Numbered from the stretch's first letter, positions 2,014 to 55,009 are shown. The stretch: DNA of 64,000 nt from Alphaproteobacteria bacterium (GCA_015062395.1 SUUS01000004.1:18943-82942), one strand, 5' to 3'. Notes: generated by a model not told the origin, from the letters alone. Made by a program: numbers and translations.

Positions 2014-4509
2014 TTACATACATATAACTTCTGCCATACCATCTTCTCTATTAGAATTGACATATTCATCGCTTACTTGGTAATACTTATTTACTGTACC
2101 GTCAATCTCATCTTCTTCTGTCCCTGCGGATGTTGAAGTCCAAACATTGATATCACTCCATTCTTTTATTAAGCTATCCGAACAGGTTTTTCCTTCTTTT
2201 CCATTCCAATTTGGACAGATATCACGAACGGAAGGTAGCGACATTCCAATTTGTTTACATATTTGTTCTCCATGTATATGGTCAATAAAGTCTATACTGC
2301 AAAAACTTACTTCATTCAATTCAATTAATTCGCCGATACCACCACATTTTTTACAGGTTCCATCAGTGAGAGTATATTCATCAGAACATTGCAGACATTT
2401 GCATTCATCTCCATATGCTAAACAACCCGTAATGTCTGAACATTTTTCGCATTTTCCCATTGCATCACATTGACCATCAACGCCGTTTGAGTATGCGCAC
2501 AAAGAACCAGGGCCAAGTTGATTTAAGCTTGGACATACACCTTCTTGGGCATTGACAAGTACGAAGCACGGACTTGGTTCCACGATAGCACAACACTTTT
2601 TAGCGACTTCATTATATGGTTCATCTTCAGGACATCCACCACCACCAGAGGACGAAGAAGAGGAGCTGCTCGATGATGAACTACTACTACTTGATGAAGA
2701 AGAACTACTCGATGAAGAGCTGCTAGTACTGCTAGAGCTCGAAGAAGAACTCGAAGAACTGCTGCTACTACTCGAGCTACTACTACTTGAAGAAGAGCTA
2801 CTGGAGCTTGACGAAGAGCTTGACGAGCTGGATGAACTACAGCTTGGAGCGCTTGTACATCCACAATCATTTCCGTTCGCTGGACAACAAAGAACAGCAT
2901 CTTCGGTTCTGCAACATTCTCCAGTTGGTTTCCAAACCTTTTCAACTTCAACATATCTGAAGCAAGTTATTCCATTGTAATCATAGGTTTCTTCTTCGCA
3001 ACAACCTGTTGGGCAAGAAGTGTCTGGGCATTCACCACAATCAGGATCATCGACGGAGCAGAATCCGTCATCACAATGATATTTGCACCCACCAGATGGT
3101 GGACATAAAGAATCATCATCATACCAGCTAGTTCCATCTTCTGTACATCTTCCACATTCGTTACTAGTAGACCACTGTCCTTCGCCATCACAAAAGCATA
3201 TAGTAACTCCGTCTTCATCTTCCCGAAGTTCACCAGGTGTACATTTTTTTGTTATGCATTCACATGTTGTTTCATCCCAAACAGCTGGAGGAATACAAAG
3301 GAAACAATGTTTGTAGTCATCAGAGGATGAATTTTCACATGTTCTCCAACCAATAGCTTCATCACAACAGCAAGTATAGGTATATGAACCATTGCTTTCT
3401 TGTCTGGAATCACAAACATAATATCCTTCTTGGGTACAAGGACAAGCACAAGTTATCTGACTTCCATCATCACAGGAATACTCAAAAGTGTCGTTTTCGC
3501 TACAGTAAGACGTATCTGTCGCTACATTCGGACAGTAGCACCCACCACCAGAAGAGCTGGAACTGCTACTACTTGAGCTCGAAGAAGAACTCGACGATGA
3601 ACTACTTGAAGAAGAGCTCGAGCTTGATGAAGAACTACTTGAAGACGAACTGGACGAACTCGAACTGCTAGAGCTGCTACAAGATGGATCAGGCGTACAA
3701 GAAATCATGCAAGCGTCTTCATCAGTCGGACAACAAGTGTCAGTTTGATTGCAGCATGTTCCCGTATAAATTGTGACTTCTTCGACTTTTAATTTGGTTA
3801 AGCAACCATATTCATCGTATTCGTCTTCTGTGATGGAGCAACTTTTTCGTGCATTTGTACTGTCACATACTCTGGTTTGACAAGTATAACCACGCCATCC
3901 ATTGTCACAAATACATTTGCCGTTAGTATCTCTGTATCCATGTCCATTACATTCATTTCTGGATACGTTGCCTCGTCTGTCGCCCCATAAAATTTTGAAA
4001 ACAACATCATTGTCTTCTTCTTGACAAGCAAGCGTTGTACCATCAACCAGAACGCTTTCAAACAATGCATTTTTTTCATCCGTCACTAAGTGGGTACAGA
4101 CGCCATAGCTGACAGGGTTGGTTGTCAAAAAGATGTAATTCGCATTATGAGTAATTGTTTTAATAAAATCCTTTTTTCCGTAGTAAGCAATTTCTCCTGA
4201 AGTAGTTGTACGAAGCCTGCGACGCCCTGTTAAATCGCTGGCAATTAATGTTGCTTCATCAGTTATGTTGTTTGCTTCGTTCCAGTCTAAAGCTTCTCGA
4301 ATTAATGCAATCGCCCCAATGGTTAAAATAGCAATAACAAATAAAACAGCAATCATTTCTAACATCGAACGCCCGAATTGAGAACGTCGAAATTGCAAAG
4401 CAGAATTGGAATTAGAAACAAGGTTTAAATCAGGAATGTCCTGTAAGTTGTTGATTTTACTTGAAAATTCGGGGGGGCAGGGGGTAAATTTGAATAAATT
4501 AATGGACAT
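2014..4509 (-). CDS. Giant type-IV-pilin-like, Cys-rich, poly-Ser-linked secreted/surface protein (putative pilus-associated adhesin)
   Basis: 831 aa. Residues 46-70 read G|RSMLEMIAVLFVIAILTIGAIALI (prepilin-peptidase-type motif, Glu at +5). The same motif family occurs in the two small pilins at 36.5-37.8 kb. AGGAAG lies 9 nt upstream of the ATG at 4509. Downstream there is an EGF-like CICDNGWRGYTC, many Cys-rich modules and two poly-Ser tracts. Confidence 0.7.
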   Translation of the reverse strand: MSINLFKFTPCPPEFSSKINNLQDIPDLNLVSNSNSALQFRRSQFGRSMLEMIAVLFVIAILTIGAIALIREALDWNEANNITDEATLIASDLTGRRRLRTTTSGEIAYYGKKDFIKTITHNANYIFLTTNPVSYGVCTHLVTDEKNALFESVLVDGTTLACQEEDNDVVFKILWGDRRGNVSRNECNGHGYRDTNGKCICDNGWRGYTCQTRVCDSTNARKSCSITEDEYDEYGCLTKLKVEEVTIYTGTCCNQTDTCCPTDEDACMISCTPDPSCSSSSSSSSSSSSSSSSSSSSSSSSSSSSSSSSSSSSSSSSSSSGGGCYCPNVATDTSYCSENDTFEYSCDDGSQITCACPCTQEGYYVCDSRQESNGSYTYTCCCDEAIGWRTCENSSSDDYKHCFLCIPPAVWDETTCECITKKCTPGELREDEDGVTICFCDGEGQWSTSNECGRCTEDGTSWYDDDSLCPPSGGCKYHCDDGFCSVDDPDCGECPDTSCPTGCCEEETYDYNGITCFRYVEVEKVWKPTGECCRTEDAVLCCPANGNDCGCTSAPSCSSSSSSSSSSSSSSSSSSSSSSSSSSSSSSSSSSSSSTSSSSSSSSSSSSSSSSSSSSSSSSSSGGGGCPEDEPYNEVAKKCCAIVEPSPCFVLVNAQEGVCPSLNQLGPGSLCAYSNGVDGQCDAMGKCEKCSDITGCLAYGDECKCLQCSDEYTLTDGTCKKCGGIGELIELNEVSFCSIDFIDHIHGEQICKQIGMSLPSVRDICPNWNGKEGKTCSDSLIKEWSDINVWTSTSAGTEEDEIDGTVNKYYQVSDEYVNSNREDGMAEVICM
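2641..2838 (-). repeat. Low-complexity Ser-codon repeat (AGC/AGT/TCN) encoding a ~66-residue poly-Ser linker
   Basis: The plus strand reads as GAAGAGCTn/ACTn iterations. The protein reads SCSSSS..(one T)..SSSGGGGCPEDE. Confidence 0.8.
3551..3684 (-). repeat. Low-complexity Ser-codon repeat encoding a ~45-residue poly-Ser linker
   Basis: The protein reads PDPSCSSSS...SSSGGGCYCPN. The DNA is imperfect Ser-codon iterations. Confidence 0.8.
4471..4477 (-). repeat. Homopolymeric C7 tract (G7 on the plus strand) inside codons 11-13 (P-C-P-P) of the 831-aa gene. A C5 follows 2 nt away.
   Basis: Sequence gaattcGGGGGGGcaGGGGGtaaa. The sense strand reads ttt acc ccc tgc ccc ccc gaa. Confidence 0.8.
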
Positions 4510-4552
4510 ATTAAATACTTCCTTTCTGATATAATTTCTATTAATTTGTCTT

Positions 4553-4581
4553 ATTTTAAATAAAACGAATCCTTAAGTCAA
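4553..4581 (-). promoter_or_regulatory. Sigma70-like promoter for the 831-aa pilin-like gene
   Basis: Minus-strand sense reads TTGACT-17 nt-TAAAAT, about 45 nt upstream of the ATG. Confidence 0.45.
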
Positions 4582-4597
4582 GAATGTTTTTTTATCT

Positions 4598-4738
4598 CGT
4601 CATATTGAGCGAGTGCGAAATATCTCATCACGTGTAGTACTGCCTACGTGCAAAAACTTCCAGAGATTCTTCGGGCTAGCGCCCTTCAGAATGACGTACG
4701 ACACATACTACGTCATATTTCGCGTTCGTTCAATATGA
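4598..4738. repeat. Palindromic repeat element, copy 1 (hairpin-rich, 'atgacgt' family) with ~27-bp imperfect terminal inverted repeats
   Basis: 4598-4624 gtcatattgagcgagtgcgaaatat is the reverse complement of 4711-4738 (atatttcgcgttcgttcaatatgac). The 38-nt core 4660-4697 (ccagagattcttcgggctagcgcccttcagaatgacgt) matches, in reverse orientation, the core at 37223-37259 (35/38 nt). Internal hairpin atgacgta/tacgtcat. Confidence 0.55.
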
Positions 4739-4817
4739 CGCGATGGGGGAGGCTGTGGTGTACGTTATTTTCACCACATTTAGGATGACTTTTAGAATGC
4801 GTAAAATAATGGGAAAA

Positions 4818-15786: not shown

Positions 15787-16443
15787 ATGAAACTGAAACG
15801 TTTTTTATTGATTTTATTTTTCTGTTTGTTCGGAATGTCCGTCTACGCGATGGACTTTCCGACATTAACAGGACAGGTAGTTGACGAGGCGGGTATTATC
15901 AATACTAAAACAGAAGAAGAAATTTTATCAATGTTGCGTGAAGGGCAGCAGTTTGTTGTTGTCACATTGAAGGATTTAAGAGGTTATGAAATTGAAGAAT
16001 ACGGGGTGGAATTGGCTCGTCATTGGAAGATTGGAACAAAAGAACATGATGATGGGGTTTTGTTAATTGTTGCTCCAAATGAAAGGCAAGTACGTATCGA
16101 AGTTGGATATGGTTTAGAGGGGGTTTTAACAGATGCCAAGAGTTCAGAAATTATCCGTCATATTTTATTACCTGCGTTTAAAGTGGGGAATTATAATGAT
16201 GGAATTGTTAGGGCTGTTGATGCGATTAATCGAATTATTGCTGGAGAGCAAGTCGATGTTGAAACAGGCGAGTTGAGTTTTTTTGAAGTCATCTTTATGA
16301 TATTCTTTTTTTTGTTCGTTTTGTTTGCAAATCTAACGCCCTCTCATTCAGATGGTTCAGGCGGCGGTGGAGGCTCTCACAGAAGTTCATTTCGTGGTGG
16401 AGGAGGTTCTTTTGGCGGTGGAGGCGCTTCTGGTAGATGGTAA
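15787..16443 (+). CDS. TPM-domain (YgcG-like) protein with a C-terminal TM helix and a Gly-rich FGGGGASGRW tail
   Basis: Signal peptide, a TPM-domain core (..VVTLKDLRGYEIEEYGVELARHWKIGTKEHDDGVLLIVAPNERQVRIEVGYGLEG..), a TM helix, then GGGGGSHRSSFRGGGGSFGGGGASGRW*. Confidence 0.8.
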   Translation: MKLKRFLLILFFCLFGMSVYAMDFPTLTGQVVDEAGIINTKTEEEILSMLREGQQFVVVTLKDLRGYEIEEYGVELARHWKIGTKEHDDGVLLIVAPNERQVRIEVGYGLEGVLTDAKSSEIIRHILLPAFKVGNYNDGIVRAVDAINRIIAGEQVDVETGELSFFEVIFMIFFFLFVLFANLTPSHSDGSGGGGGSHRSSFRGGGGSFGGGGASGRW

Positions 16444-17135
16444 TGCAAGAAACTCTATCTTTACGTGAAAAAATAAAAAAGTATAAAAAAGAAAATAGAA
16501 CTTATTTTTTGGCTCAAGAAAAAACTACAAAAAAGTTAGAGCAAGAACTTTTAAAAAAAGGGAATTATACTCGTTTGTGGTGGAACAGAACAAGTTATTT
16601 TCTGCCACAACAAAAATCATCAGAGGTGGATGATTTTTTATCCGACTTGGGTGGACGGAATTGTGATGCTTTTTCTGTTTCTAGCTTATCTAAAAGAGAT
16701 ATTTGGGTTCTTTTTATATATTATTTAATTTGTATCGGAATTCGAATTTATAGCCAATGGGGTTTGTTACATGATCTTTATTCTGTTGAAAATTCTATAG
16801 GTATTTTATTGTATCGTGTGTCGTTTGAAGCATTGCTTGTTTTGATTTGTTTTTTATTTTTAGGCTTCTTTTTGTTTGCAGTTGTTTTTATTCTATTTTG
16901 TTTTTTTGATGTTATTTTGATATTCGTTTACTTAATTTCCTCTAATAAAAAAAGGCAATATTTAGATGAAAAGTTTTCAGATGAAAATTGTGGTGTCGTT
17001 GTTATGAAAATTTGGTGTTGGATATTTAAATTTATTTTATCTGTTTTGTCATTTTCATATCTTGGTAAACTTTTTTCTTCTTTTAAGGGAGCCAGTGGTT
17101 CTTTTGGTGGAGGAGGCGCTTCTGGTAGATGGTAG
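16437..17135 (+). CDS. Polytopic membrane protein sharing the FGGGGASGRW C-terminal tail (no TPM domain)
   Basis: 232 aa. The ATG lies inside the agATGGta of the previous gene's tail codons. Ends ..GASGSFGGGGASGRW*. Confidence 0.6.
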   Translation: MVMQETLSLREKIKKYKKENRTYFLAQEKTTKKLEQELLKKGNYTRLWWNRTSYFLPQQKSSEVDDFLSDLGGRNCDAFSVSSLSKRDIWVLFIYYLICIGIRIYSQWGLLHDLYSVENSIGILLYRVSFEALLVLICFLFLGFFLFAVVFILFCFFDVILIFVYLISSNKKRQYLDEKFSDENCGVVVMKIWCWIFKFILSVLSFSYLGKLFSSFKGASGSFGGGGASGRW

Positions 17136-17908
17136 ATTTTTTTTGCTTTTTTTTACTTTTTGCTTTAGTCCTTTTTTTATCGTTTAGAAAACAGCATTTT
17201 ACTGTACGTGAAAATATAAAAAGGATATATGGGTCGGATGACGCAAATTTCATCCGTTATCCAAGGCGTTCTTCATCCGTTTTTCAGACAATTTTAAGTA
17301 TTTTTTCTGCTGTTTTAGTTCTTTTTATGTTTTGTTTTTTCTTTTGGTGGCTTATATTTCCATTGGATGCAGTTATTGAGAATAATATTGATAAACTGAT
17401 GCCAATATTTTTGACTATATTCTTTTTCATCTCTTTTCTTGAAACAATAATTTTATATAAGGAAAACGAAGATTTTCAACGGATTATAAAAAAGCTTCTT
17501 TTGTTTTTTTTAATTTATTTTTTGCCGTCGATTTTAATTTGTTTTTTTTCATATTGTTATTATAAAGAAAATATCTTGGATATGGGGATATTCCTTTTCT
17601 TTGTTTTTTCTTTTTTTCTTTGTTTGGCTGTTAATATATCAATATGTGTCAGTGCTTTTTTGGGCATTGTTTTTATTTATGGAATCGGGTATTTTTTTAT
17701 TGTTTTTTATAGCCTTCTTACAGGAAAAAGGATAAATGCGATTAAATGTCCGGCTTTTTCTCATCGTTTTTTTCACAATTTTTGGATGGTTTGTTTTTGG
17801 ATGATGACGTTTTATTACGTATATTGGTTTTTCGGAAAGTTATTAGGGGTATTTCAATCGGGAAAAGGAAATTTCGGTGGGGGAGGCGCTTCTGGTAGAT
17901 GGAAATAA
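17129..17908 (+). CDS. Polytopic membrane protein sharing the FGGGGASGRW(K) C-terminal tail
   Basis: 259 aa with ~6 TM helices. The ATG is embedded in the previous gene's tail. Ends ..GKGNFGGGGASGRWK*. Confidence 0.6.
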   Translation: MVDFFCFFLLFALVLFLSFRKQHFTVRENIKRIYGSDDANFIRYPRRSSSVFQTILSIFSAVLVLFMFCFFFWWLIFPLDAVIENNIDKLMPIFLTIFFFISFLETIILYKENEDFQRIIKKLLLFFLIYFLPSILICFFSYCYYKENILDMGIFLFFVFSFFLCLAVNISICVSAFLGIVFIYGIGYFFIVFYSLLTGKRINAIKCPAFSHRFFHNFWMVCFWMMTFYYVYWFFGKLLGVFQSGKGNFGGGGASGRWK

Positions 17909-27313: not shown

Positions 27314-28615
27314 TTATTCTGTTGTAGTGGTTCTGGTACGCGATGTTGGTTCATTTTGTCTGACACAAAATTTATGAACAACAGCTTCTTTAACAGCTCC
27401 TGACAGTGTGACAAACGTTGAATCTGCAGATTTTTCCACAGAAAAAGTCGTTTCGGTTGTCGCATTGGATACAAATTTCGTTGGAATGATTGTAATACCT
27501 TTATTGTACCCCGTTGGACATGTCCATTCATCTAAACCTTTTGAATCAGTAATCGTTTCAACATCCACTAAACTCCATTTTGGTAAAACTTCACTTAATT
27601 TAGCACCACCCAAAGACATTAACTTTATGTCATGCATAACAGATGTGTATGATGGGTCTAATTGATAACGCGCAACGCATGCTGTTCCTGTCCATGCGCA
27701 TCCTGCTGTTTGCTCACAGGTTGAAGCATTCGTTCCAGTGCAAGATGCACTATTATGGTTTTCACCGACGATTGGACCATCTATATGTAATTGCCCTGCA
27801 ATACGTACTTTACCCGTTGATGTATTGACCTCAAAAAAAGGCGTACAGCCAGTTTTAACAGTTACGGAATTAGTACCATAATTGGTTATGCAGTCATCGC
27901 TGTCAACGGTTAAAAGGTTTTTAAAACCTGCTGTTAGACCCGTTACTGTATCGGCTTGCGCCGTTTGTGCTTTTAAATGTTGCCATCTGATATCTTTCAG
28001 AATCGAAGAATTGGTGGCTTCTTCAAAGGCTGTTATAGCTGCGACTGCATTTACTGGAACTCCATCAAAGTCCCACTCCCAAGCTCCTTGCATTCCTTTT
28101 AGTGTTTCTGTCGTTCCTACACCACCTTCAAGTCCGATTAAGGCTGCAATTTTTGCCGCACGTCTCAAAGTTAAGGGTTGTGTTCCGTCTTGTTGATGTG
28201 CAATACCATAAATAACTGGACGATAGGTCGTATCAGAGACTGGGACAGTATAACCACAAATAACCAGCGCATAATCATCCAGAATTTCTGGATTTCCAGC
28301 AAAAAAATCCATTATATCATCGGTTGAAAAATCATAACATTCTTGTTTTTCTTGGGTTATACTTTGATAGTTTTCGTTTTCATCGTCATATAAGCCCAAT
28401 TCTTTCGATAGAATTAATTCATTTGCTTGGATATATGCAGCTAATCCATCTTTTACTGCACGTATTTCTGTGGCAATTTGCGTGTCAATAATGTCTTCAT
28501 TTCTGCGTCTGATTTGTTGAAACAAAATTGGTGTTATCAATGCAATTAAGCCAATAACAGCAACCATTTCAATCATTAAAGAACCTGTTTGTTTTTTCTT
28601 TACATTTTGACGCAT
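27314..28615 (-). CDS. Type-IV-pilin-like protein with a large C-terminal domain (minor-pilin or pseudopilin-like)
   Basis: 433 aa. N-terminus MRQNVKKKQTG|SLMIEMVAVIGLIALITPILF carries the class III signal motif (Glu at +5). The C-terminal ~380 aa are Thr/Gly/Cys-containing with no recognised domain. Confidence 0.6.
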   Translation of the reverse strand: MRQNVKKKQTGSLMIEMVAVIGLIALITPILFQQIRRRNEDIIDTQIATEIRAVKDGLAAYIQANELILSKELGLYDDENENYQSITQEKQECYDFSTDDIMDFFAGNPEILDDYALVICGYTVPVSDTTYRPVIYGIAHQQDGTQPLTLRRAAKIAALIGLEGGVGTTETLKGMQGAWEWDFDGVPVNAVAAITAFEEATNSSILKDIRWQHLKAQTAQADTVTGLTAGFKNLLTVDSDDCITNYGTNSVTVKTGCTPFFEVNTSTGKVRIAGQLHIDGPIVGENHNSASCTGTNASTCEQTAGCAWTGTACVARYQLDPSYTSVMHDIKLMSLGGAKLSEVLPKWSLVDVETITDSKGLDEWTCPTGYNKGITIIPTKFVSNATTETTFSVEKSADSTFVTLSGAVKEAVVHKFCVRQNEPTSRTRTTTTE

Positions 28616-28632: not shown

Positions 28633-29469
28633 TTATTTTTTAAGTGGTTTGATAATGCCACTTTGGCATATTGAGGTGTTGGCATTCCAATAACAACCTT
28701 GGTGTGCGTATTGTCCACAAGTTATATGATTGTGTTTTATGCAATTTGGATTATAAGCGACAGACAAACGCGAAATGCAAATTAAATACTCTTCATTCGT
28801 TTCATTTAAAATCTCATCCGTTAACGCTTTTGGTAAATTAACTGTTTTCATACGTGTGTTTGATAATGAATAATCAGCATTATTTGGGTCAAAATCACGA
28901 CCATCTTTTTGGCTGCGTTCTGCTAAAATACCACAGTATGTGGAAAGTTGAACGCCATCGCCACTGTTCGAATCGTCACGATATTCAATAAAACGCATTT
29001 TTTCACCCAACGCTCTGGGGGACAAGCTTGTTAAATACGTTCCATACATAGGATCTAAATCAGAAAAAGTTGTATATGTGACTAAAAAATCTGTTGTGCC
29101 ATAATCTTCAAAATCTTCATTGAATTGCCTTTTGGCACACGTATTTGTTTGCGATGCAGTTTCGTTATCAATGCAAATAATTGTTGAAATTGGAGGATTG
29201 TTCGTTTGAACCATGTTTGGCGATAAAAATTCACTGAATTCCATCTGACCCGATGCAACCCAGTCTTCATATTTCATTTTTCTGCTTCCATCTTCAGTCT
29301 CTGTGACCATAGAACCAGCTTGTAAAGCCGCGCTATGTTGGCTAATCAATTCTTGTACAACAATTTTAGCGTGTGGTATATCAATTTGGGAAACACCATC
29401 CGCTCTGGGGTAAAGCGAATAAAATAAAAGAGTCGCTAAAAAAGTCAGTGTTCCGAGTAAATAAAACAT
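28633..29469 (-). CDS. Hypothetical N-terminally anchored or secreted protein, co-oriented immediately upstream of the 433-aa pilin-like gene
   Basis: 278 aa. Hydrophobic N-terminus FYLLGTLTFLATLLFYSLY. AAGGA RBS. 17-nt gap to the next gene, suggesting an operon. Confidence 0.5.
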   Translation of the reverse strand: MFYLLGTLTFLATLLFYSLYPRADGVSQIDIPHAKIVVQELISQHSAALQAGSMVTETEDGSRKMKYEDWVASGQMEFSEFLSPNMVQTNNPPISTIICIDNETASQTNTCAKRQFNEDFEDYGTTDFLVTYTTFSDLDPMYGTYLTSLSPRALGEKMRFIEYRDDSNSGDGVQLSTYCGILAERSQKDGRDFDPNNADYSLSNTRMKTVNLPKALTDEILNETNEEYLICISRLSVAYNPNCIKHNHITCGQYAHQGCYWNANTSICQSGIIKPLKK

Positions 29470-31537: not shown

Positions 31538-33388
31538 TTGATTGTAAAGGAGAATAAAATGCAAGAAAAAATCCCAGAACATTTTGATTTAGAACAGTTG
31601 GTTGTGGATGTCGTTTCTGCTGAAATGTTGGATGAAAAACAATCAGAACGTATCGTTTCTTTGTTAAGTAAAGCATTATCTGTTCACAAAATTATTTTGA
31701 ATGTGAAGATTGATAAATCATTAATAGCTGGTTTTAAATTGCAAATAGCATCTTGTTTTTTGGATTTTTCCTTGGATACAAAATTGCAAAAATTACAATC
31801 TTTTTTAGAAAATGTTGACTTTAATCAGCTTGAAAATTACGATTTTGATGCGCTGTTTGCCAAATGGAAAGAAAAGCAGAAATCAGAAAAAGTTATGCAA
31901 CGAATCGGGATTATTTCTTCAATCAAAGATGGCGTTGTTCGTATTAAAGGAATGAGGCAAGTTAAAGCTGGCGAATTGATTAAATTTTCGCACGATGCGC
32001 AAGGAATAGTTTTTACTTTAAATACAGATTATACAGATGTTGTTTTGCTTTCTGGTGCAGATGTTTTAAAAGAGGGGGATTTAGCATACCAAACAGGTGC
32101 AGTTGTTCAGGTTCCAATTGGAAAGGAATTAATCGGACGAGTCGTTGATGCTTTGGGTAATCCTTTGGATGGAAATGGTAAAATACAGACAAAACAACAA
32201 AAACCATTAGAAGCTTCAGTTCCAGGAATTATCGATAGACAACCTGTTTTTAAGTCTTTCCCAACAGGATTAAAGGTGGTTGATGCGTTGGTTCCTATCG
32301 GTTTGGGTCAGCGTGAATTAATCGTTGGAGACAGGCAAACAGGAAAAACATCTATTATCATTGATGCAATTTTAAATCAAAAACGCTTAAATGATGCTGC
32401 AAAACAAGAAAAAGATAAAATTTACTGCGTATATGTCTGCATTGGACAAAAACAATCTACGGTTGCTCAAGTTGTGAACGTGTTGAAAAATATGGGGGCT
32501 ATGGATTATACGTGTGTTGTTTGTGCTAATGCATCAGACCCTGCGTCGCAACAGTATTTGGCACCATTTACAGGAACAACGATTGCAGAATACTTTCGAG
32601 ACAATGGGATGAATGCCGTTGTTTTTTATGATGATTTATCGAAGCATGCGAATGCTTATCGGCAAATATCTTTGCTGTTGAGACGACCTCCTGGCCGAGA
32701 AGCTTATCCAGGGGATATTTTCTATTTACATTCTCGTTTGCTTGAACGAGCTGCTATGATGAGTGAGGAAAAAGGTGGTGGTTCTTTAACTGCAATACCC
32801 GTTGTTGAAACGCAAGAAGGCGATTTATCAGCCTATATCCCTACAAATGTAATTTCCATTACAGACGGTCAGATTTTTTTAGAAAGCGCTTTATTTCATC
32901 AAGGGGTAAGACCTGCTGTTAATGTTGGGTTGTCGGTGTCTCGAGTCGGTTCAAAGGCGCAAAGGCCATTACTTGCAAAATTATCAGGTTCTTTAAAATT
33001 GGAATTGGCTCAATATCGTGAAATGTTGTCCTTTTCTCAAATTGCTTCTGATTTGGATGCTTCTAGCCAAGAATTATTGCAAAAGGGCTTACGTATTACA
33101 GAGGTTTTAAAGCAGCGTGTTTATAAGCCCCTTTCTTTTGTTGATGAATATATTGCATTATATGCAGTTTTAAATGGCTTTTATGCAGGAATGGTTGCAC
33201 ATGATATTTTGGACTTTGAACCGATATTGTTGGAAAAAATACATTTAGATTACCCAGACATTATCGAAGAAATTGAAAATGCAAAAGGAACATTACCTTC
33301 GCATATTTTAAAAGCTTTAGATGACGCGATAAAAGAAGAAATAGCAGCTTTTATTGACGAAAAGACACGACAGGAACATTTGTCATGA
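31538..33388 (+). CDS. atpA: F1 ATP synthase: delta (OSCP) C-terminal-domain-like segment fused in frame to full-length alpha subunit
   Basis: 616 aa. Residues ~20-85 (VVDVVSAEMLDEKQ..NVKIDKSLIAGFKLQIAS..LDTKLQKL) align to the delta C-terminal domain. From ~120 onward a canonical alpha subunit follows (GIISSIKDGVVRIKG.., P-loop GDRQTGKT). AAGGAG lies 7 nt before ATG 31538. No stop codon separates the two parts. Confidence 0.8.
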   Translation: MIVKENKMQEKIPEHFDLEQLVVDVVSAEMLDEKQSERIVSLLSKALSVHKIILNVKIDKSLIAGFKLQIASCFLDFSLDTKLQKLQSFLENVDFNQLENYDFDALFAKWKEKQKSEKVMQRIGIISSIKDGVVRIKGMRQVKAGELIKFSHDAQGIVFTLNTDYTDVVLLSGADVLKEGDLAYQTGAVVQVPIGKELIGRVVDALGNPLDGNGKIQTKQQKPLEASVPGIIDRQPVFKSFPTGLKVVDALVPIGLGQRELIVGDRQTGKTSIIIDAILNQKRLNDAAKQEKDKIYCVYVCIGQKQSTVAQVVNVLKNMGAMDYTCVVCANASDPASQQYLAPFTGTTIAEYFRDNGMNAVVFYDDLSKHANAYRQISLLLRRPPGREAYPGDIFYLHSRLLERAAMMSEEKGGGSLTAIPVVETQEGDLSAYIPTNVISITDGQIFLESALFHQGVRPAVNVGLSVSRVGSKAQRPLLAKLSGSLKLELAQYREMLSFSQIASDLDASSQELLQKGLRITEVLKQRVYKPLSFVDEYIALYAVLNGFYAGMVAHDILDFEPILLEKIHLDYPDIIEEIENAKGTLPSHILKALDDAIKEEIAAFIDEKTRQEHLS

Positions 33389-36494: not shown

Positions 36495-36911
36495 TTAAAT
36501 TTCGAATGTAAATACGATGACGCCTTCTCCTGCTCCAGCAGCAATTTGTGGGTTCGCATTTGCAGAGTTACGAGTTGTGATAGCTTCTGCAACAGCTGTA
36601 CCAAGATTCGGTGTTGTGAGTGTGAATTCATTATTGGCATTAACAGCACTAACTTGATAATCAACGGCATTTCCAATTGGAGCTGTATCTGTCATAAGAG
36701 CATTACAGGTTGTAGCGCCTAAATCAGCTGCAGCACCTGAACCACGTGTTTGAGCCAAAACACCACAACGGGATACATATTCCAAAACGCTGTTAGCGCG
36801 ATGACGGTTCATAGCCATTGTGTAACCAGCCAAACCACCGATTGACAAAACACCGATAATTGCCAATACACCCAACATTTCAATCATAGAACGACCATAT
36901 TCTTTTTTCAT
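36495..36911 (-). CDS. Type IV pilin (major-pilin-like), paralogue A
   Basis: 138 aa. MKKEYG|RSMIEMLGVLAIIGVLSIGGLAGY.. has a short basic leader, a Gly cleavage site and Glu at +5. Two Cys in the C-terminal half. Confidence 0.8.
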   Translation of the reverse strand: MKKEYGRSMIEMLGVLAIIGVLSIGGLAGYTMAMNRHRANSVLEYVSRCGVLAQTRGSGAAADLGATTCNALMTDTAPIGNAVDYQVSAVNANNEFTLTTPNLGTAVAEAITTRNSANANPQIAAGAGEGVIVFTFEI

Positions 36912-37385: not shown

Positions 37386-37796
37386 TTAAATTCCGAATGT
37401 AAATTGAACAGCGTCATCACCACTAGCAGCAATTTGTGGGTTCGCATTTGCAGAGTTACGAGCAACGATTGCTTCTGCAATGGATTCTCCAATAGCTGGT
37501 GTTGTAATTGTGAATTCATCATCAGCAGCTGCGCCAACGACGTACTCTGCAGCTGCACCAATTGGAGCTGTATCTGTCATAAGAGCACCACAGGTTGTAG
37601 CAGTTAAATCATCTGCAGCACCTGAACCACGTGTTTGAGCCAAAACAGCACAACGGGATACATATTCCATAACGGAGTTAGCGCGATGACGGTTCATAGC
37701 CATTGTGTAACCAGCCAAACCACCGATTGACAAAACACCGATAATTGCCAATACACCCAACATTTCAATCATAGAACGACCATATTCTTTTTTCAT
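37386..37796 (-). CDS. Type IV pilin, paralogue B
   Basis: 136 aa. The first ~60 aa are nearly identical to paralogue A. The C-terminal half has diverged (AEYVVGAAADDEFTITTPAIGESIAEAIVARNSANANPQIAASGDDAVQFTFGI). Confidence 0.8.
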   Translation of the reverse strand: MKKEYGRSMIEMLGVLAIIGVLSIGGLAGYTMAMNRHRANSVMEYVSRCAVLAQTRGSGAADDLTATTCGALMTDTAPIGAAAEYVVGAAADDEFTITTPAIGESIAEAIVARNSANANPQIAASGDDAVQFTFGI

Positions 37797-51171: not shown

Positions 51172-52205
51172 AATAATGTAGCCAATCCAATCAATCCCAT
51201 AAAAAATGAAAACAACCAAAAGCAGCGAACAACTTTGACTTCACTCCATCCTTTTTTTTCAAAATGGTGATGAATAGGCGCCATTAAAAAAATCCGTTTT
51301 TTAAAACGTTTGTATGAAAATACTTGTATCACATCCGACAGCGCTTCGATGACAAATAATGAACCGATAATAGCCAGTAATAATTCCTGATGTAAACAAA
51401 TGGCCATCATTCCCAATACAGCCCCCATTCCTAGAGCACCGATATCTCCCATAAAAATTTGAGCAGGTTTTTTATTGTAGTATAAAAATGCTAAAAGCGC
51501 TCCACAGGATGCTGATGCAAAAATACTAATAACCCAAACATCTGGTATATAAAAAAGCGAAACCCGTCTGGCTAAAGTTAAATCTCCTGTGATTATTCCC
51601 AATATGGCAAAGCAAATAAAAGAAATAATTAATGGTACGGAAACCAATCCATCTAATCCATCGGTTAAATTAACGGCATTGACGGTTCCTGTAAAAACGA
51701 ATGCGGCAAAAACAACATAAAGAAAACTTAATCCAAATACTGTTTTAAAATAAGGTATTTGTAGTGCTGTCATTACTTTTGTGGGCGTTAAATACATTGC
51801 AAAAAGTATAGCGATGGTTGCGACGATAAATTCAATGAGCAATCGTTTGTTTTCAGAAATACCATTTGGGGAAGAACTTTTTAACTTGCAAAAATCGTCA
51901 TAGAACCCTAAAAGTCCCATAGATAACATTACAAAAATTAAAATCCAAAGGAAGCCATTTGTAAGGGGACACCACAACAACACAGAAACCAATGTTGATA
52001 ATAATATAACAATCCCCCCCATTGTTGGCGTTCCTTTTTTGGTAAGGTGCGTTTGAGGACCGTTTAATCTGATGGGTTGTTCTTTTTTTAAGCTTTTCAT
52101 TTTGTTTATAAATTTGGGCATACCTAAAAAACAAAGCAGATATGCTGTTAAAAAAGCGATTAAACAAGACATTAAAACATTCGAAGATAAAACTGAAAAA
52201 AGCAT
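51168..52205 (-). CDS. mraY: Phospho-N-acetylmuramoyl-pentapeptide transferase
   Basis: ..NAVNLTDGLDGL.. and ..MGDIGALGMGAVLG.. Confidence 0.9.
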   Translation of the reverse strand: MLFSVLSSNVLMSCLIAFLTAYLLCFLGMPKFINKMKSLKKEQPIRLNGPQTHLTKKGTPTMGGIVILLSTLVSVLLWCPLTNGFLWILIFVMLSMGLLGFYDDFCKLKSSSPNGISENKRLLIEFIVATIAILFAMYLTPTKVMTALQIPYFKTVFGLSFLYVVFAAFVFTGTVNAVNLTDGLDGLVSVPLIISFICFAILGIITGDLTLARRVSLFYIPDVWVISIFASASCGALLAFLYYNKKPAQIFMGDIGALGMGAVLGMMAICLHQELLLAIIGSLFVIEALSDVIQVFSYKRFKKRIFLMAPIHHHFEKKGWSEVKVVRCFWLFSFFMGLIGLATLL

Positions 52206-55009
52206 TATTGAAAAGCCTCCAAAATTTTGTCTAAACGCATAGAGTTAGAACCTTTTATCAAAACAGTATCTCCATCTTGCAGAACTGCTTTTAACGATTC
52301 TATTACTTCAGGTGCATTTAAAACAGCAACAGCCTTTTTGCTTTCAGGAAGAACATCAAAGAGTTGTTTTATTTCTTCTCCTATCGTAAAAACAAGGTCT
52401 ATGTTATTTTTTTCAATAATGTCTTTTAAGCCTATATGTAGTTGTCTGGATTCTGTACCCAGTTCTTTCATTTCACCCAAAACAGCAATTTTCCTTCCAG
52501 GATAACGAGACAGAACGTCTAGTGAGGCTGCCATTGATGCAGGATTTGCATTATAAGCATCATCAATAAATGTAATCGTTTTTCCATCTATTTCTTTTTG
52601 CAGTGTTGCACCACGACCTTTTAACGGTTTAATGTGTTTTAAGTTTTCTATCGCTTTATCCACATCAGCACCTAACGCCAAAACAACGCCCAATACTCCC
52701 AAGGCATTTTGAATAAAATGTAATCCTGCTAATTGAAGCTGAAGTTGTTTTATTTGTCCATTAATTTGTATTTGAGCAATCGACCCTTCTTTGTTTATGG
52801 CGTAGTTTAATAATTTTACGGAAGCTTCTGGCTTGGAACCAAATGAATAAATATGAGAAATATCATTTTCAGAAGCTCTTTGTTTTAAATGTTGGAATTG
52901 ATCATTATCTGCATTTAAGAAAACAGCCCCATTTTTATTCATAAATTTAAAGATTTCGGATTTTGCATCAGCAATTTGTTGAACGTCTTTAAAAAATTCA
53001 AGATGTGCCGAACAAATCATTGTAATCAGTACAATGTCTGGTTTTACCAAATAAGATAGATATTCCATTTCACCAATATGATTCATTCCCATTTCAATAA
53101 TCGTCCAGTTGGCCAACCTGGGCATACGGGCCAAAGTTAAAGGAACCCCCCATTGGTTGTTTAAGTTTCCTTGCGTAAAATGAACTTCTCCTTGTCCTTT
53201 TAAAGCTGTTGCTAGCATTTCTTTGGATGTAGTTTTTCCTGATGAACCAGTAATACCAATTTTAATTGTTTTTGAATTTTGTACAGCATATTTTGCCATA
53301 TCCTCTAATGCTTCATCTGTATTAGTGACAAAGAATAATTTATCTGTTTGGTCAACTTGAGGTACATCTCTGCTAACAATCGCTGCCGCAGCACCTTTTT
53401 GGAGTGCATCGGCAACAAAATCATGTCCATCAAATTTTTCTCCTTTTAACGCAACGTAAATATCTCCAGGGATAATCGTTCTTGAATCAATAGAAACACC
53501 ATAGCCAATGAATGCTTTGTAAGCTTTTCCCCCAGTTGCTTTTTTCAATTCATCGCTTGTCCATAATGGTTTTTCTTCTTGTGATTTTAAGGCTAACAGC
53601 GCTTGGATGCGATCGTTAAAAGGATGGTTAAATCCATTAATCATTTGTCCTTCTTCATGACCTTTACCTGCAATTAACAAGCAATCTGCTTTTTGCAGTT
53701 TTCGAATCGCATGATAAATCGCTTTTGCTCTGTCTGCAATCGGATGTGCATTGGGACAGCCTTGCATAATTTCTGAACGAATTTCGGCTGCATCTTCAAA
53801 ACGGGGATTGTCATCTGTGACGATAACGTAATCAGCTAATTGTGCTGCTATTTGTCCCATAATAGGACGTTTTCCACGATCTCTGTTCCCACCACAACCA
53901 AAAACAACATAAAGTTTGCCTTTTGTTTGTCTTTTCAATGAGGTCAACGCTGTTTCAAGTCCATCAGGTGTATGTGCATAGTCAACAAAAATAGTCGCCC
54001 CAGTTTTTGTTTGAGCAATTAATTCCATTCTGCCAGCTGGACTTTTTAAGTGAGACAATGCCATTATAACATCAGGGATTGCAAAATTTAAAGATAAAAC
54101 CAAACCGATAGCTGCTAATACATTATAGCCTTGAAAGTTTCCTGCAACTGGCAGATGGACATCGTATCTTTCTCCGAATACTTCTAATGTTAAATCTTGT
54201 CCTGTTTCATAAAGTTTTTGATTTATTAAACGTATTTGTTGCCCTTGTTTTCCATAGGAAATAACATTTAATCCCTTTTGCTGGCAAATTTTTTGAATAG
54301 TTGTAAATTCTGGTATATCTGCGTTTAATACGGCTGTTTGCGTTGTTAATTCAGTAAATAAACGCATTTTTGCCATCAGATAATTTTCCATATTTTGATG
54401 ATAATCTAAATGGTCGCGTGTCAAGTTTGTAAATGCTGCAGCTTTGAATTTTAATCCACTTAATCTGTCTTGGTCCAAACCATGCGAGGATGCTTCTAAT
54501 GCTACGTAATTTACACTGTTTTCTGACAGCGTTTGTAAATCTTTACTTAAGGTAATACTGTCTGTTGTTGTCATTCCTGCATATGAATGATGATTTTTGG
54601 ACTGAACGCCTAATGTGCCAATACTGGCAGCATTTTTTCCAAGAGCTTCCAAAATTTCACGAACAAAAAAGACAGTAGAAGTTTTTCCATTTGTTCCTGT
54701 GACAGCCAATAAATTTTCAGGGTAATTTTGATAAAATAAAGACGCCAATTTAGCCATTGCTTGTCTGGCATTTTTAACTTCAAAAACTGGGATTTGCGCT
54801 TCAACAGGTGTGTCTGTTAAAATTGCAACTGCACCATTTGAAATAGCTTCTGGAATGTAAGAAAGACCACTTTCTTTATTTCCATTTACAGCAATGAATA
54901 AATTTCCTTTTTCAACTTTTCTAGAATCACAGGCAATTCCTGTTATTTCAAAATCAGCTTCAAAAGGCGTTGTAATTTCAGCTTTTTTTAATAATTCAGA
55001 CAATATCAT
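52205..55009 (-). CDS. murE: Fused MurE (meso-DAP-adding ligase) - MurF (D-Ala-D-Ala-adding ligase) polypeptide
   Basis: 934 aa single ORF. The N-terminal half is MurE (..VTGTNGKTSTVFF.., DNPR). From about residue 470 (WTSDELKKATGGKA..IYVALKGEKFDGHDFV..GITGSSGKTTSKEM) it is MurF. Confidence 0.8.
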   Translation of the reverse strand: MILSELLKKAEITTPFEADFEITGIACDSRKVEKGNLFIAVNGNKESGLSYIPEAISNGAVAILTDTPVEAQIPVFEVKNARQAMAKLASLFYQNYPENLLAVTGTNGKTSTVFFVREILEALGKNAASIGTLGVQSKNHHSYAGMTTTDSITLSKDLQTLSENSVNYVALEASSHGLDQDRLSGLKFKAAAFTNLTRDHLDYHQNMENYLMAKMRLFTELTTQTAVLNADIPEFTTIQKICQQKGLNVISYGKQGQQIRLINQKLYETGQDLTLEVFGERYDVHLPVAGNFQGYNVLAAIGLVLSLNFAIPDVIMALSHLKSPAGRMELIAQTKTGATIFVDYAHTPDGLETALTSLKRQTKGKLYVVFGCGGNRDRGKRPIMGQIAAQLADYVIVTDDNPRFEDAAEIRSEIMQGCPNAHPIADRAKAIYHAIRKLQKADCLLIAGKGHEEGQMINGFNHPFNDRIQALLALKSQEEKPLWTSDELKKATGGKAYKAFIGYGVSIDSRTIIPGDIYVALKGEKFDGHDFVADALQKGAAAAIVSRDVPQVDQTDKLFFVTNTDEALEDMAKYAVQNSKTIKIGITGSSGKTTSKEMLATALKGQGEVHFTQGNLNNQWGVPLTLARMPRLANWTIIEMGMNHIGEMEYLSYLVKPDIVLITMICSAHLEFFKDVQQIADAKSEIFKFMNKNGAVFLNADNDQFQHLKQRASENDISHIYSFGSKPEASVKLLNYAINKEGSIAQIQINGQIKQLQLQLAGLHFIQNALGVLGVVLALGADVDKAIENLKHIKPLKGRGATLQKEIDGKTITFIDDAYNANPASMAASLDVLSRYPGRKIAVLGEMKELGTESRQLHIGLKDIIEKNNIDLVFTIGEEIKQLFDVLPESKKAVAVLNAPEVIESLKAVLQDGDTVLIKGSNSMRLDKILEAFQ

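Follow-up and report, generated by a model that had tools for sequence, protein, structure and literature searches.

Within a 64,000-nucleotide stretch of DNA from an Alphaproteobacteria bacterium (GCA_015062395.1 SUUS01000004.1:18943-82942; the whole of this stretch is referred to below as the window), the minus-strand gene at 2014-4509 probably encodes a modular pilin of the type IVb class that serves as an adhesin, either as a subunit of low abundance or at the pilus tip. The open reading frame (ORF) is a single uninterrupted frame of 831 codons, the same length as given in an earlier note on this DNA, and its product, referred to here as the giant protein, contains 75 Cys and 160 Ser. Read from the N-terminus, the protein is composed of a predicted leader peptide, a pilin module, an epidermal growth factor (EGF)-like domain, a series of Cys-rich modules joined by two long poly-Ser linkers and a probable C-type lectin-like domain. 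A modular pilin has been defined as a pilin module joined to one or more domains that are not specific to pilus biology (PMC8179133), and in the giant protein these are EGF_2 and the probable C-type lectin-like domain. Described modular pilins number more than 1,200 and fall into 264 architectures, including a protein of 860 residues and three that join a pilin to a C-type lectin (Raynaud et al. 2021, PMC8179133), and there is no EGF architecture in that dataset. While the earlier note considered the architecture undescribed, large pilins with grafted modules are known (PMC8179133), and it is the set of modules and the family that are new. The combination of a type IVb-type carrier with EGF, lectin-like and disulfide-rich modules and long poly-Ser is a new one within a known concept.

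The assignment to the pilins begins with the N-terminus, which reads RRSQFG46/RSMLEMIAVLFVIAILTIGAIALI (a slash marks the predicted cleavage site here and below). It carries a class III-type signal, G46/RSMLE(+5)MIAVLFVIAILTIGAIALI, that is, a hydrophobic stretch with Glu at +5. Based on the sequence and the family alignment, residues 1-46 (4372-4509; minus strand, as are all segments of the protein below) are predicted to be a leader peptide that ends at Gly46 with a prepilin-peptidase site G/R, and profile homology identifies residues 47-183 (3961-4371) as a pilin module with a hydrophobic alpha1 helix, Glu+5, a small head and the pair Cys138/Cys162. In an alignment of 16 relatives that share the same layout, taken from a full HMMER scan (alignment A2), Gly(-1), Arg(+1), Glu(+5), one head Cys and the EGF Cys are invariant, and the second head Cys (Cys162 of the pair) is kept in at least 90% of the sequences. 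Compared with the PDB, A2 matched TcpA (E 0.0019; profile positions 11-123 against mature residues 2-138), a fimbrial protein (E 0.005) and CofA (E 0.017). Mature residue 2 of TcpA is aligned to A2 position 11, indicating that the cleavage site follows the Gly. A2 also matched an alignment of PilS/bundlin-like pilins (A5) at hhalign 99.7% (E 1.8e-25, 112 columns), in a match that spans alpha1 and continues into the head as far as the first conserved Cys, and A5 itself matched bundlin (E 8.6e-15), TcpA (E 2.3e-8) and PilS (E 5.4e-6) in the PDB. Profile comparison extends the homology to type IVb pilins over residues about 45-150 of the giant protein, and all PDB and Pfam matches of the pilin-type profiles are type IVb. 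Profile homology shows the N-terminal ~140 residues to be a pilin module homologous to PilS/bundlin/TcpA-type pilins, and the type IV pilin N-terminus proposed in the earlier note is borne out by these matches.

The same N-terminal motif is found elsewhere in the window. Two small pilin-like genes on the minus strand, at 36495-36911 (138 residues, N-terminus G/RSMIEM) and 37386-37796 (136 residues, same N-terminal motif), read MKKEYG/RSMIEMLGVLAIIG, and G-R-S-M-[IL]-E-M is common to all three genes, in line with the shared prepilin motif that had been noticed between the giant gene and the small genes at 36.5-37.8 kb. Over alpha1, the first of the two matches PilS-like pilins at hhalign 99.6% (E 5e-24), and the small-pilin family profile matches residues 45-90 of the giant protein at hhalign 96.6% (E 6.7e-10). 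The small-pilin family comprises more than 5,000 sequences, in which the first ~35 mature residues are invariant. The earlier description of the two small genes as bona fide pilins holds by profile homology only, and they remain below the curated Pfam and NCBIfam thresholds. A long leader and a residue other than Phe at +1 are traits of type IVb pilins. For the giant protein we found a long leader, Arg at +1 and similarity to TcpA, CofA, BfpA and PilS, and in its relatives a type IVb-type operon. The leader is 46 residues long when counted from the ATG, or 9 residues from a TTG at codon 38, the only alternative in-frame start before Gly46 and one that lacks a Shine-Dalgarno-like motif. Among 78 complete modular ORFs of the family (mature length of at least 200 residues, drawn from 80 kept loci), 10-14 require a leader of at least 20 residues, and the median for the small pilins is 8 residues.

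Pilus genes are found together with pilins of this kind in related gut metagenome-assembled genomes (MAGs), in which PilS/bundlin-like pilins with the N-terminus G/RSMVEMLGVLAIIG lie within a type IVb operon. At locus L074 the gene order is TcpQ-like, secretin, PAP_PilO, T2SSE ATPase and T2SSF platform, followed by PilS/bundlin-type pilins reading G/RSMVEMLGVLAIIGVLS. The same order is found at L179, and parts of it at L082 and in the Alphaproteobacteria MAG L083, where homologues of TcpQ, the secretin and PilO are located ~7 kb from a modular family member. The T2SSE ATPase of the related operon is 36% identical to BfpD. Judged by sequence, the A5 pilins (L074-type) are bona fide type IVb pilins. 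No A24 prepilin peptidase was seen at any locus examined.

The gene surroundings and the conservation of the pilin module bear on an alternative that we regard as unlikely, in which the giant protein is a surface or periplasmic protein anchored by a pilin-like signal and never polymerised. The class III-like N-terminus would then act solely in membrane anchoring or export, and the stalk and lectin-like head would be presented at the cell envelope or used in a type II secretion-like pseudopilus instead of a long pilus. Such an anchor would fit with the absence of assembly machinery near any of the four pilin-like genes of the window, and with the scattering of family genes in their genomes outside pilus operons, but the minor-pilin genes of type IV pilus systems are often scattered. 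Alpha1 is extremely conserved (~35 invariant residues in the small pilins), as the packing of a filament core predicts and to a degree that exceeds the need of an anchor. The unusually long leader, and the name 'type II secretion system protein' given by NCBI to one relative, favor the anchor; the invariant Glu+5 and a homology to filament-forming type IVb pilins that reaches the head favor a modular type IVb pilin that enters a filament.

Immediately downstream of the pilin module, residues 184-210 (3880-3960) correspond to a teneurin/tenascin-type EGF-like domain with four of the six canonical Cys, according to Pfam, PROSITE and the family profile. EGF_2 scored 26.3 bits on this segment against a cut-off of 22.1 (E 9.7e-6) and EGF_Teneurin 23.9 bits against 24.3. 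All 16 of the 16 family members matched EGF_2 and 13 matched EGF_Teneurin (best E 4.4e-9), while the family profile matched the EGF repeats of teneurin-2 (E 5e-15). The sequence CICDNGWRGYTC (residues 199-210) satisfies both PROSITE patterns, EGF_1 and EGF_2; when the Cys-rich part is shuffled, the two coincide at a single site in 0.1% of cases. The EGF-like signature of the earlier note is thereby upheld. Both partners of the first disulfide are missing from the EGF of the giant protein, and relatives such as P0170 retain the six Cys.

The remainder of the protein up to the C-terminal domain consists of Cys-rich modules and poly-Ser. As described earlier, Cys-rich modules joined by two long poly-Ser linkers follow the EGF, with the numbers in need of correction: there are 68 Cys downstream of the EGF (not ~60) and the linkers measure 43 and 64 residues (not ~45 and ~66). 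The first Cys-rich module (residues 211-277, 3679-3879) is followed by poly-Ser linker 1 (residues 278-320, 3550-3678; 43 Ser), a central Cys-rich region (residues 321-557, 2839-3549) that has 38 Cys and a degenerate EGF-like CFCDGEGQW, poly-Ser linker 2 (residues 558-621, 2647-2838; 64 residues including one Thr) and a last Cys-rich module (residues 622-729, 2323-2646) that is common to the relatives P0145, P0146 and P0147 at 63-88% identity. Each poly-Ser tract is preceded by a pre-linker module of ~50 residues, copy 1 being the last ~50 residues of 211-277 and copy 2 residues 506-557, and the two copies are 41% identical over 54 residues (E 1e-4). Neither Pfam nor PDB searches returned a match for the rest of residues 211-277, for residues 321-557 or for residues 622-729. 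When the whole protein was searched against Pfam, NCBIfam and the PDB, we obtained low-complexity noise only, and the domains emerged with segments or family profiles. The poly-Ser tracts mix all six Ser codons, and Tandem Repeats Finder detected weak repeats of 12-21 nt only; this mixture of codons and weak periodicity indicates that the runs are kept at the protein level and are not a simple triplet repeat. A metallothionein-like origin of the Cys content, which the earlier note had named as an artefact that would refute its reading, was rejected, since the Cys keep a conserved spacing within modules that are EGF, lectin-like or repeated. A serine-rich repeat (SRR) adhesin was likewise rejected as an identity for the protein, since the match to NF033849 is at the level of composition (17.3 bits against a cut-off of 650).

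At the C-terminus, the last ~100 residues of the giant protein can be aligned to the ends of many relatives whose own C-termini read ALC[EK]. Profiles of this region (A3 and A6) locate a probable C-type lectin-like domain at residues ~730-831 (2017-2322), with Cys751-Cys830, Cys765-Cys776 and VW790TST. About 55 of the 58 PDB matches of A3 are C-type lectin-like domains, including DEC-205 (E 4.6e-6), mosGCTL-6 (E 2.6e-4), PLA2R, the mannose receptor, langerin, dectin-1 and intimin, and A6, a profile without the giant protein's own subgroup, still matches only C-type lectin-like domains. No variation is seen at Cys751, Cys830 or W790, and Cys751-Cys830 corresponds to the canonical helix-to-last-strand disulfide. 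Residues ~730-831, overlooked as a domain in the earlier note, are probably a compact, intimin-like and non-canonical C-type lectin-like domain.

The nature of this C-terminal domain also speaks to a second alternative, that the protein carries a released effector or toxin, its C-terminal modules being cleaved or exported via the type IVb system in the manner of TcpF/CofJ-type proteins or polymorphic toxins. We consider this very unlikely. The terminal domain resembles a binding domain, and no Hint, protease or toxin domain is present in the giant protein, although the C-terminal modules of the family are swappable and protein export by type IVb pili is known (PMC10120004, PMC9565799). In the relatives P0177 and P0181, the region after the EGF resembles a Hint/intein-like self-cleaving domain by eye and gives the effector weak support (PDB intein, E 0.018), but Pfam returned nothing for it and does not confirm a Hint domain in these relatives.

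Under the reading that we prefer, a modular type IVb-class pilin at low abundance or at the tip, a prepilin peptidase would remove the leader after Gly46 and the alpha1 helix would dock the protein into a type IVb filament, probably at its tip, like other bulky modular or minor pilins (PMC8179133, PMC6048534, PMC5207764). The EGF and Cys-rich modules would then form a rigid, protease-resistant stalk, and the poly-Ser tracts would be extended, possibly O-glycosylated spacers that determine by their length how far the head can reach. This lectin-like head would attach to a ligand displayed by host, protist, fungal or bacterial cells of the ruminant gut.

Several observations weigh against this reading. 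With the curated signature PF07963 (N_methyl), the N-terminal segment reached 13.9 bits against a cut-off of 21.2 (E 0.043) and the whole protein gave no match; in NCBIfam, TIGR02532 gave no match and the PilV model TIGR02523 scored 20 bits against 52. Arg at +1 together with a leader of 46 residues is atypical for a class III signal. AlphaFold, run on single sequences with no alignment, produced two models with a predicted local distance difference test (pLDDT) score of 39.6 and 34.6 and no usable model of the head or C-terminus; in the N-terminal part a confident helix was obtained only for residues 49-80, with the rest at pLDDT below 50. At the other end of the protein, the giant protein's own sequence matched A6 at a moderate hhalign 73% (E 3.1e-5). 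None of the sugar-binding motifs EPN, QPD and WND occurs in residues 730-831 and Pfam Lectin_C matched 0 of 10 members, which is why we refer to the domain as lectin-like and not as a proven lectin. The 64-kb window and an extra ~14 kb yielded no gene for a pilus ATPase, platform protein, secretin or prepilin peptidase, and a metagenome scan with the L074 pilus ATPase detected only close relatives in human-gut assemblies, not in the goat samples that carry the genome of the giant gene. The ~68 extracellular Cys would need oxidative folding in a gut organism, and a mature subunit of ~785 residues would have to pass through the secretin. An adhesin is the most reasonable role to infer, with adhesion and the ligand purely inferred. 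A literature search on the pili of this lineage returned nothing relevant.

We also considered that the gene might be non-functional, whether as a pseudogene in decay or as an artefact of assembly or low complexity. A large protein collection lacks the exact protein, which, as inferred by accession counting, also appears to have no protein record in the NCBI MAG. Assemblies often break in the gene, with many contigs of other assemblies terminating within it, a pattern that fits with poly-Ser disrupting assembly. In spite of these breaks, eight other assemblies of the same organism (JGI, ENA and Logan) have the ORF intact at 100% or 99.96% identity; disruption of the ORF in independent assemblies had been named in the earlier note as a refutation of its reading. 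The identical 831-residue ORF is predicted on a JGI contig of 77 kb, with which seven other assemblies agree, and in a diverged strain the ORF stays open across a tract of 207 Ser. Together with the significant domain homologies and the presence of a promoter, a ribosome-binding site and a terminator, this makes a non-functional gene extremely improbable.

Both expression signals that had been claimed for the gene were located in the sequence. A putative sigma-70-like promoter, TTGACT-17-TAAAAT, is found at 4553-4581 on the minus strand (10 of 12 matches in a consensus scan, and direct reading), and a Shine-Dalgarno-like AAAGGAAG, read directly, at 4518-4525 on the same strand, 8 nt 5' of the ATG at 4509. 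In addition, a stem-loop flanked by A/T runs at 1960-1986, between the giant gene and the convergent gatB, is likely a bidirectional terminator, judging from its sequence and position. Directly 5' of the promoter there is a 30-nt inverted repeat (4594-4623 and 4715-4744; 87% complementary, 91 nt apart) that is unique within the window and could be a regulatory site or the remnant of a small mobile element. The giant gene is flanked by gatB on one side and by a small ORF and then cmk on the other, in a window of ~35% G+C with ordinary housekeeping genes (gatAB, asmA, ATP synthase, dcw/fts cluster). The neighboring GatB protein is MBE6449394.1, and the hypothetical neighbors are tagged E7013_01820 and E7013_01825 (exact matches).

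The giant protein is not alone of its kind and belongs to an expanded, lineage-specific and rapidly diversifying family of gut Alphaproteobacteria. Scanned in full with HMMER, 1.8 billion representatives yielded 76 relatives, and we confirmed 229 loci in species-representative genomes, nearly all of which are gut Alphaproteobacteria MAGs. Almost all family members belong to gut Alphaproteobacteria that are uncultured, from goat, roe deer, buffalo, rabbit and human samples, with at least 12 copies per genome in some MAGs. A word-indexed homologue search with poly-Ser removed gave no matches, and a final homologue search with the alignment of the closest subfamily returned mostly short ENA fragments. 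The 78 complete modular ORFs are up to 1,033 residues long with up to 97 Cys, and in a crude motif test 23 of them end in a lectin-like pattern and 6 have an EGF_2 motif. Long homopolymeric linkers are uncommon in the family, with no run of at least 6 [ST] residues in the relatives at the 80 kept loci and an (ET)n linker in a single relative. Segments of the giant protein are joined to different neighbors elsewhere, indicating module shuffling: relative P0184 shares residues 397-495 at 49% identity, while P0145-P0147 share residues 622-729 and then diverge into different C-terminal modules. P0224 and similar GRSM-type relatives contain a Mucin2_WxxW repeat domain (PF13330, E 1.6e-19), a further module with eukaryotic associations on this carrier. 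At a locus of a related MAG (L015, 8148-12322), a pair of small-pilin homologues adjoins a Fic-domain gene and two ankyrin-repeat genes. Genes of these two kinds are often tied to interaction with eukaryotic cells.

Comparison of the locus across related genomes, a check put forward in the earlier note, revealed a mosaic between strains. In a second strain (L009, L010), gatB has 66 synonymous and 2 non-synonymous codon differences, and upstream gatA/gatB differ at 4-22 positions per 200 bp. There are zero differences from ~1780 to 2650, a region that spans the gatB 3' end, the terminator and the C-terminal lectin-like cassette, and one synonymous change in the last 211 codons of the giant gene. 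The second poly-Ser linker of this strain has 207 residues as opposed to 64, and the module before the linker differs. A nearly identical C-terminal cassette next to a diverged gatB points to a recent recombinational exchange of the cassette. In a third strain (L012 3411-3713, L013 3386-3688; gatB 94% identical), the position of the giant gene is occupied by the end of a different Cys-containing gene, reading DCCRNYDKSGIETTTGDC up to its stop codon, on short contigs without the N-terminus. Other family members are present at the gatB-adjacent site in species further removed (L040, L050 and L075). As read from these sequences, the locus diversifies between strains by recombination and by change in linker length, and the mosaic represents a small natural experiment in adhesin diversification.

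Variation of this kind invites comparison with the R64/TP114 PilS/PilV thin pilus, in which a constant N-terminus of PilV is combined with interchangeable C-terminal adhesin ends that set target specificity (PMC9045228). The related gut operons also hold PAP_PilO, PilS/bundlin pilins, a TcpQ-like protein, a secretin, T2SSE and T2SSF. A shufflon was rejected for the giant gene, however: beside it are gatB on one side and the small ORF and cmk on the other, with no sfx cassettes or Rci-type recombinase nearby and no similarity to plasmid genes. Variation occurs instead via paralogues, allelic exchange and linker length, and the paralogue set and allelic exchange may play the role of the PilV shufflon.

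Other known systems share parts of the architecture. PilB and PilC of Streptococcus sanguinis (PMC8179133; Shahin et al. 2023, PMC9934059) likewise consist of a pilin carrier with grafted binding modules (vWA, lectin). These belong to the type IVa/Com-like pilins, their IPR012902 motifs being canonical and their linkers short, in contrast to the type IVb-like G/RSM.E motif, EGF, ~68 Cys and poly-Ser of 43-207 residues seen here. The motif of the giant protein falls under IPR012902-type thresholds and would therefore escape the survey of Raynaud et al. Closer in class are CofB of CFA/III from enterotoxigenic Escherichia coli and TcpB of the toxin-coregulated pilus made by Vibrio cholerae, which are large type IVb minor pilins with a flexible linker and beta-rich C-terminal domains, are located at the tip, where they initiate assembly and mediate binding, and in the case of CofB have a lectin-type domain (PMC6048534, PMC5207764). 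Of the structures in the PDB, TcpA and CofA, from the same two systems, match the pilin module of the family best. CofB and TcpB are each encoded by a single-copy gene in the pilus operon, and we found no similarity past the pilin module, while the family of the giant protein has many scattered paralogues with varied Cys-rich modules. With selectins, animal receptors that combine C-type lectin-like and EGF domains, and intimin/invasin, the giant protein shares a vocabulary of C-type lectin-like domain and EGF on a stalk, the profiles matching the EGF of E-selectin and the C-type lectin-like domain of intimin. Compared with selectins, the order is reversed (EGF near the anchor, lectin-like domain at the C-terminus), the Ca2+/sugar motifs are absent and the anchor is a pilin, so the resemblance is in parts only. 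Gram-positive SRR adhesins also have a binding domain borne on a long Ser-rich stalk that is often O-glycosylated, and the giant protein is alike in its Ser stalk but has no SecA2/Y2 context, LPXTG motif or SRR dipeptide repeats.

If the preferred reading of a type IVb-class modular pilin is correct, modular pilins extend to a type IVb lineage with the motif G/RSM.EMLGVLAIIG. This motif falls under the standard pilin signatures, so that database surveys miss the lineage. EGF and C-type lectin-like modules, a high Cys content and long homopolymeric Ser stalks would join the known pilus parts, and there would be a hypervariable adhesin repertoire in widespread, uncultured Alphaproteobacteria of the human and animal gut, providing a handle on their attachment targets. 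More tentatively, and on balance doubtful, these uncultured bacteria may have built a recognition system on a type IVb pilus: a large and recombining set of tip subunits pieced together from modules of eukaryotic likeness (teneurin-type EGF, C-type lectin-like heads, mucin-like WxxW, disulfide knots) on a tunable stalk (poly-Ser of 43 to more than 200 residues), for strain-specific attachment to mucosa, protists, fungi or prey bacteria. Were this true, the system would do without a shufflon what PilV switching does with one, and would be the bacterial counterpart of receptors of the selectin type.

The window contains several further ORFs of note. A 433-residue ORF at 27314-28615 (minus strand) has a class III-like N-terminus, KKKQTG/SLMIEMVAVIGLIAL, whose likeness to the GRSM pilins is at the level of the motif only (hhalign 21%). 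Its 278-residue neighbor at 28633-29469 (minus strand) has the same C-terminal arrangement, C-x7-C-x5-GC-x-W-x6-C, and by these sequence features the two may be another minor-pilin-like pair. Three tandem ORFs at 15787-17908 (plus strand) end in GGGGASGRW, the first encoding a TPM-domain protein and the other two looking like multi-pass membrane proteins. The ATP synthase alpha ORF at 31538-33388 (plus strand) is 616 residues long with an N-terminal extension of ~110 residues that resembles delta/OSCP by eye, and may be a delta-alpha fusion. Finally, a 934-residue ORF at 52205-55009 (minus strand) has two complete sets of Mur ligase domains and, from this domain content, appears to be a MurE-MurF fusion.

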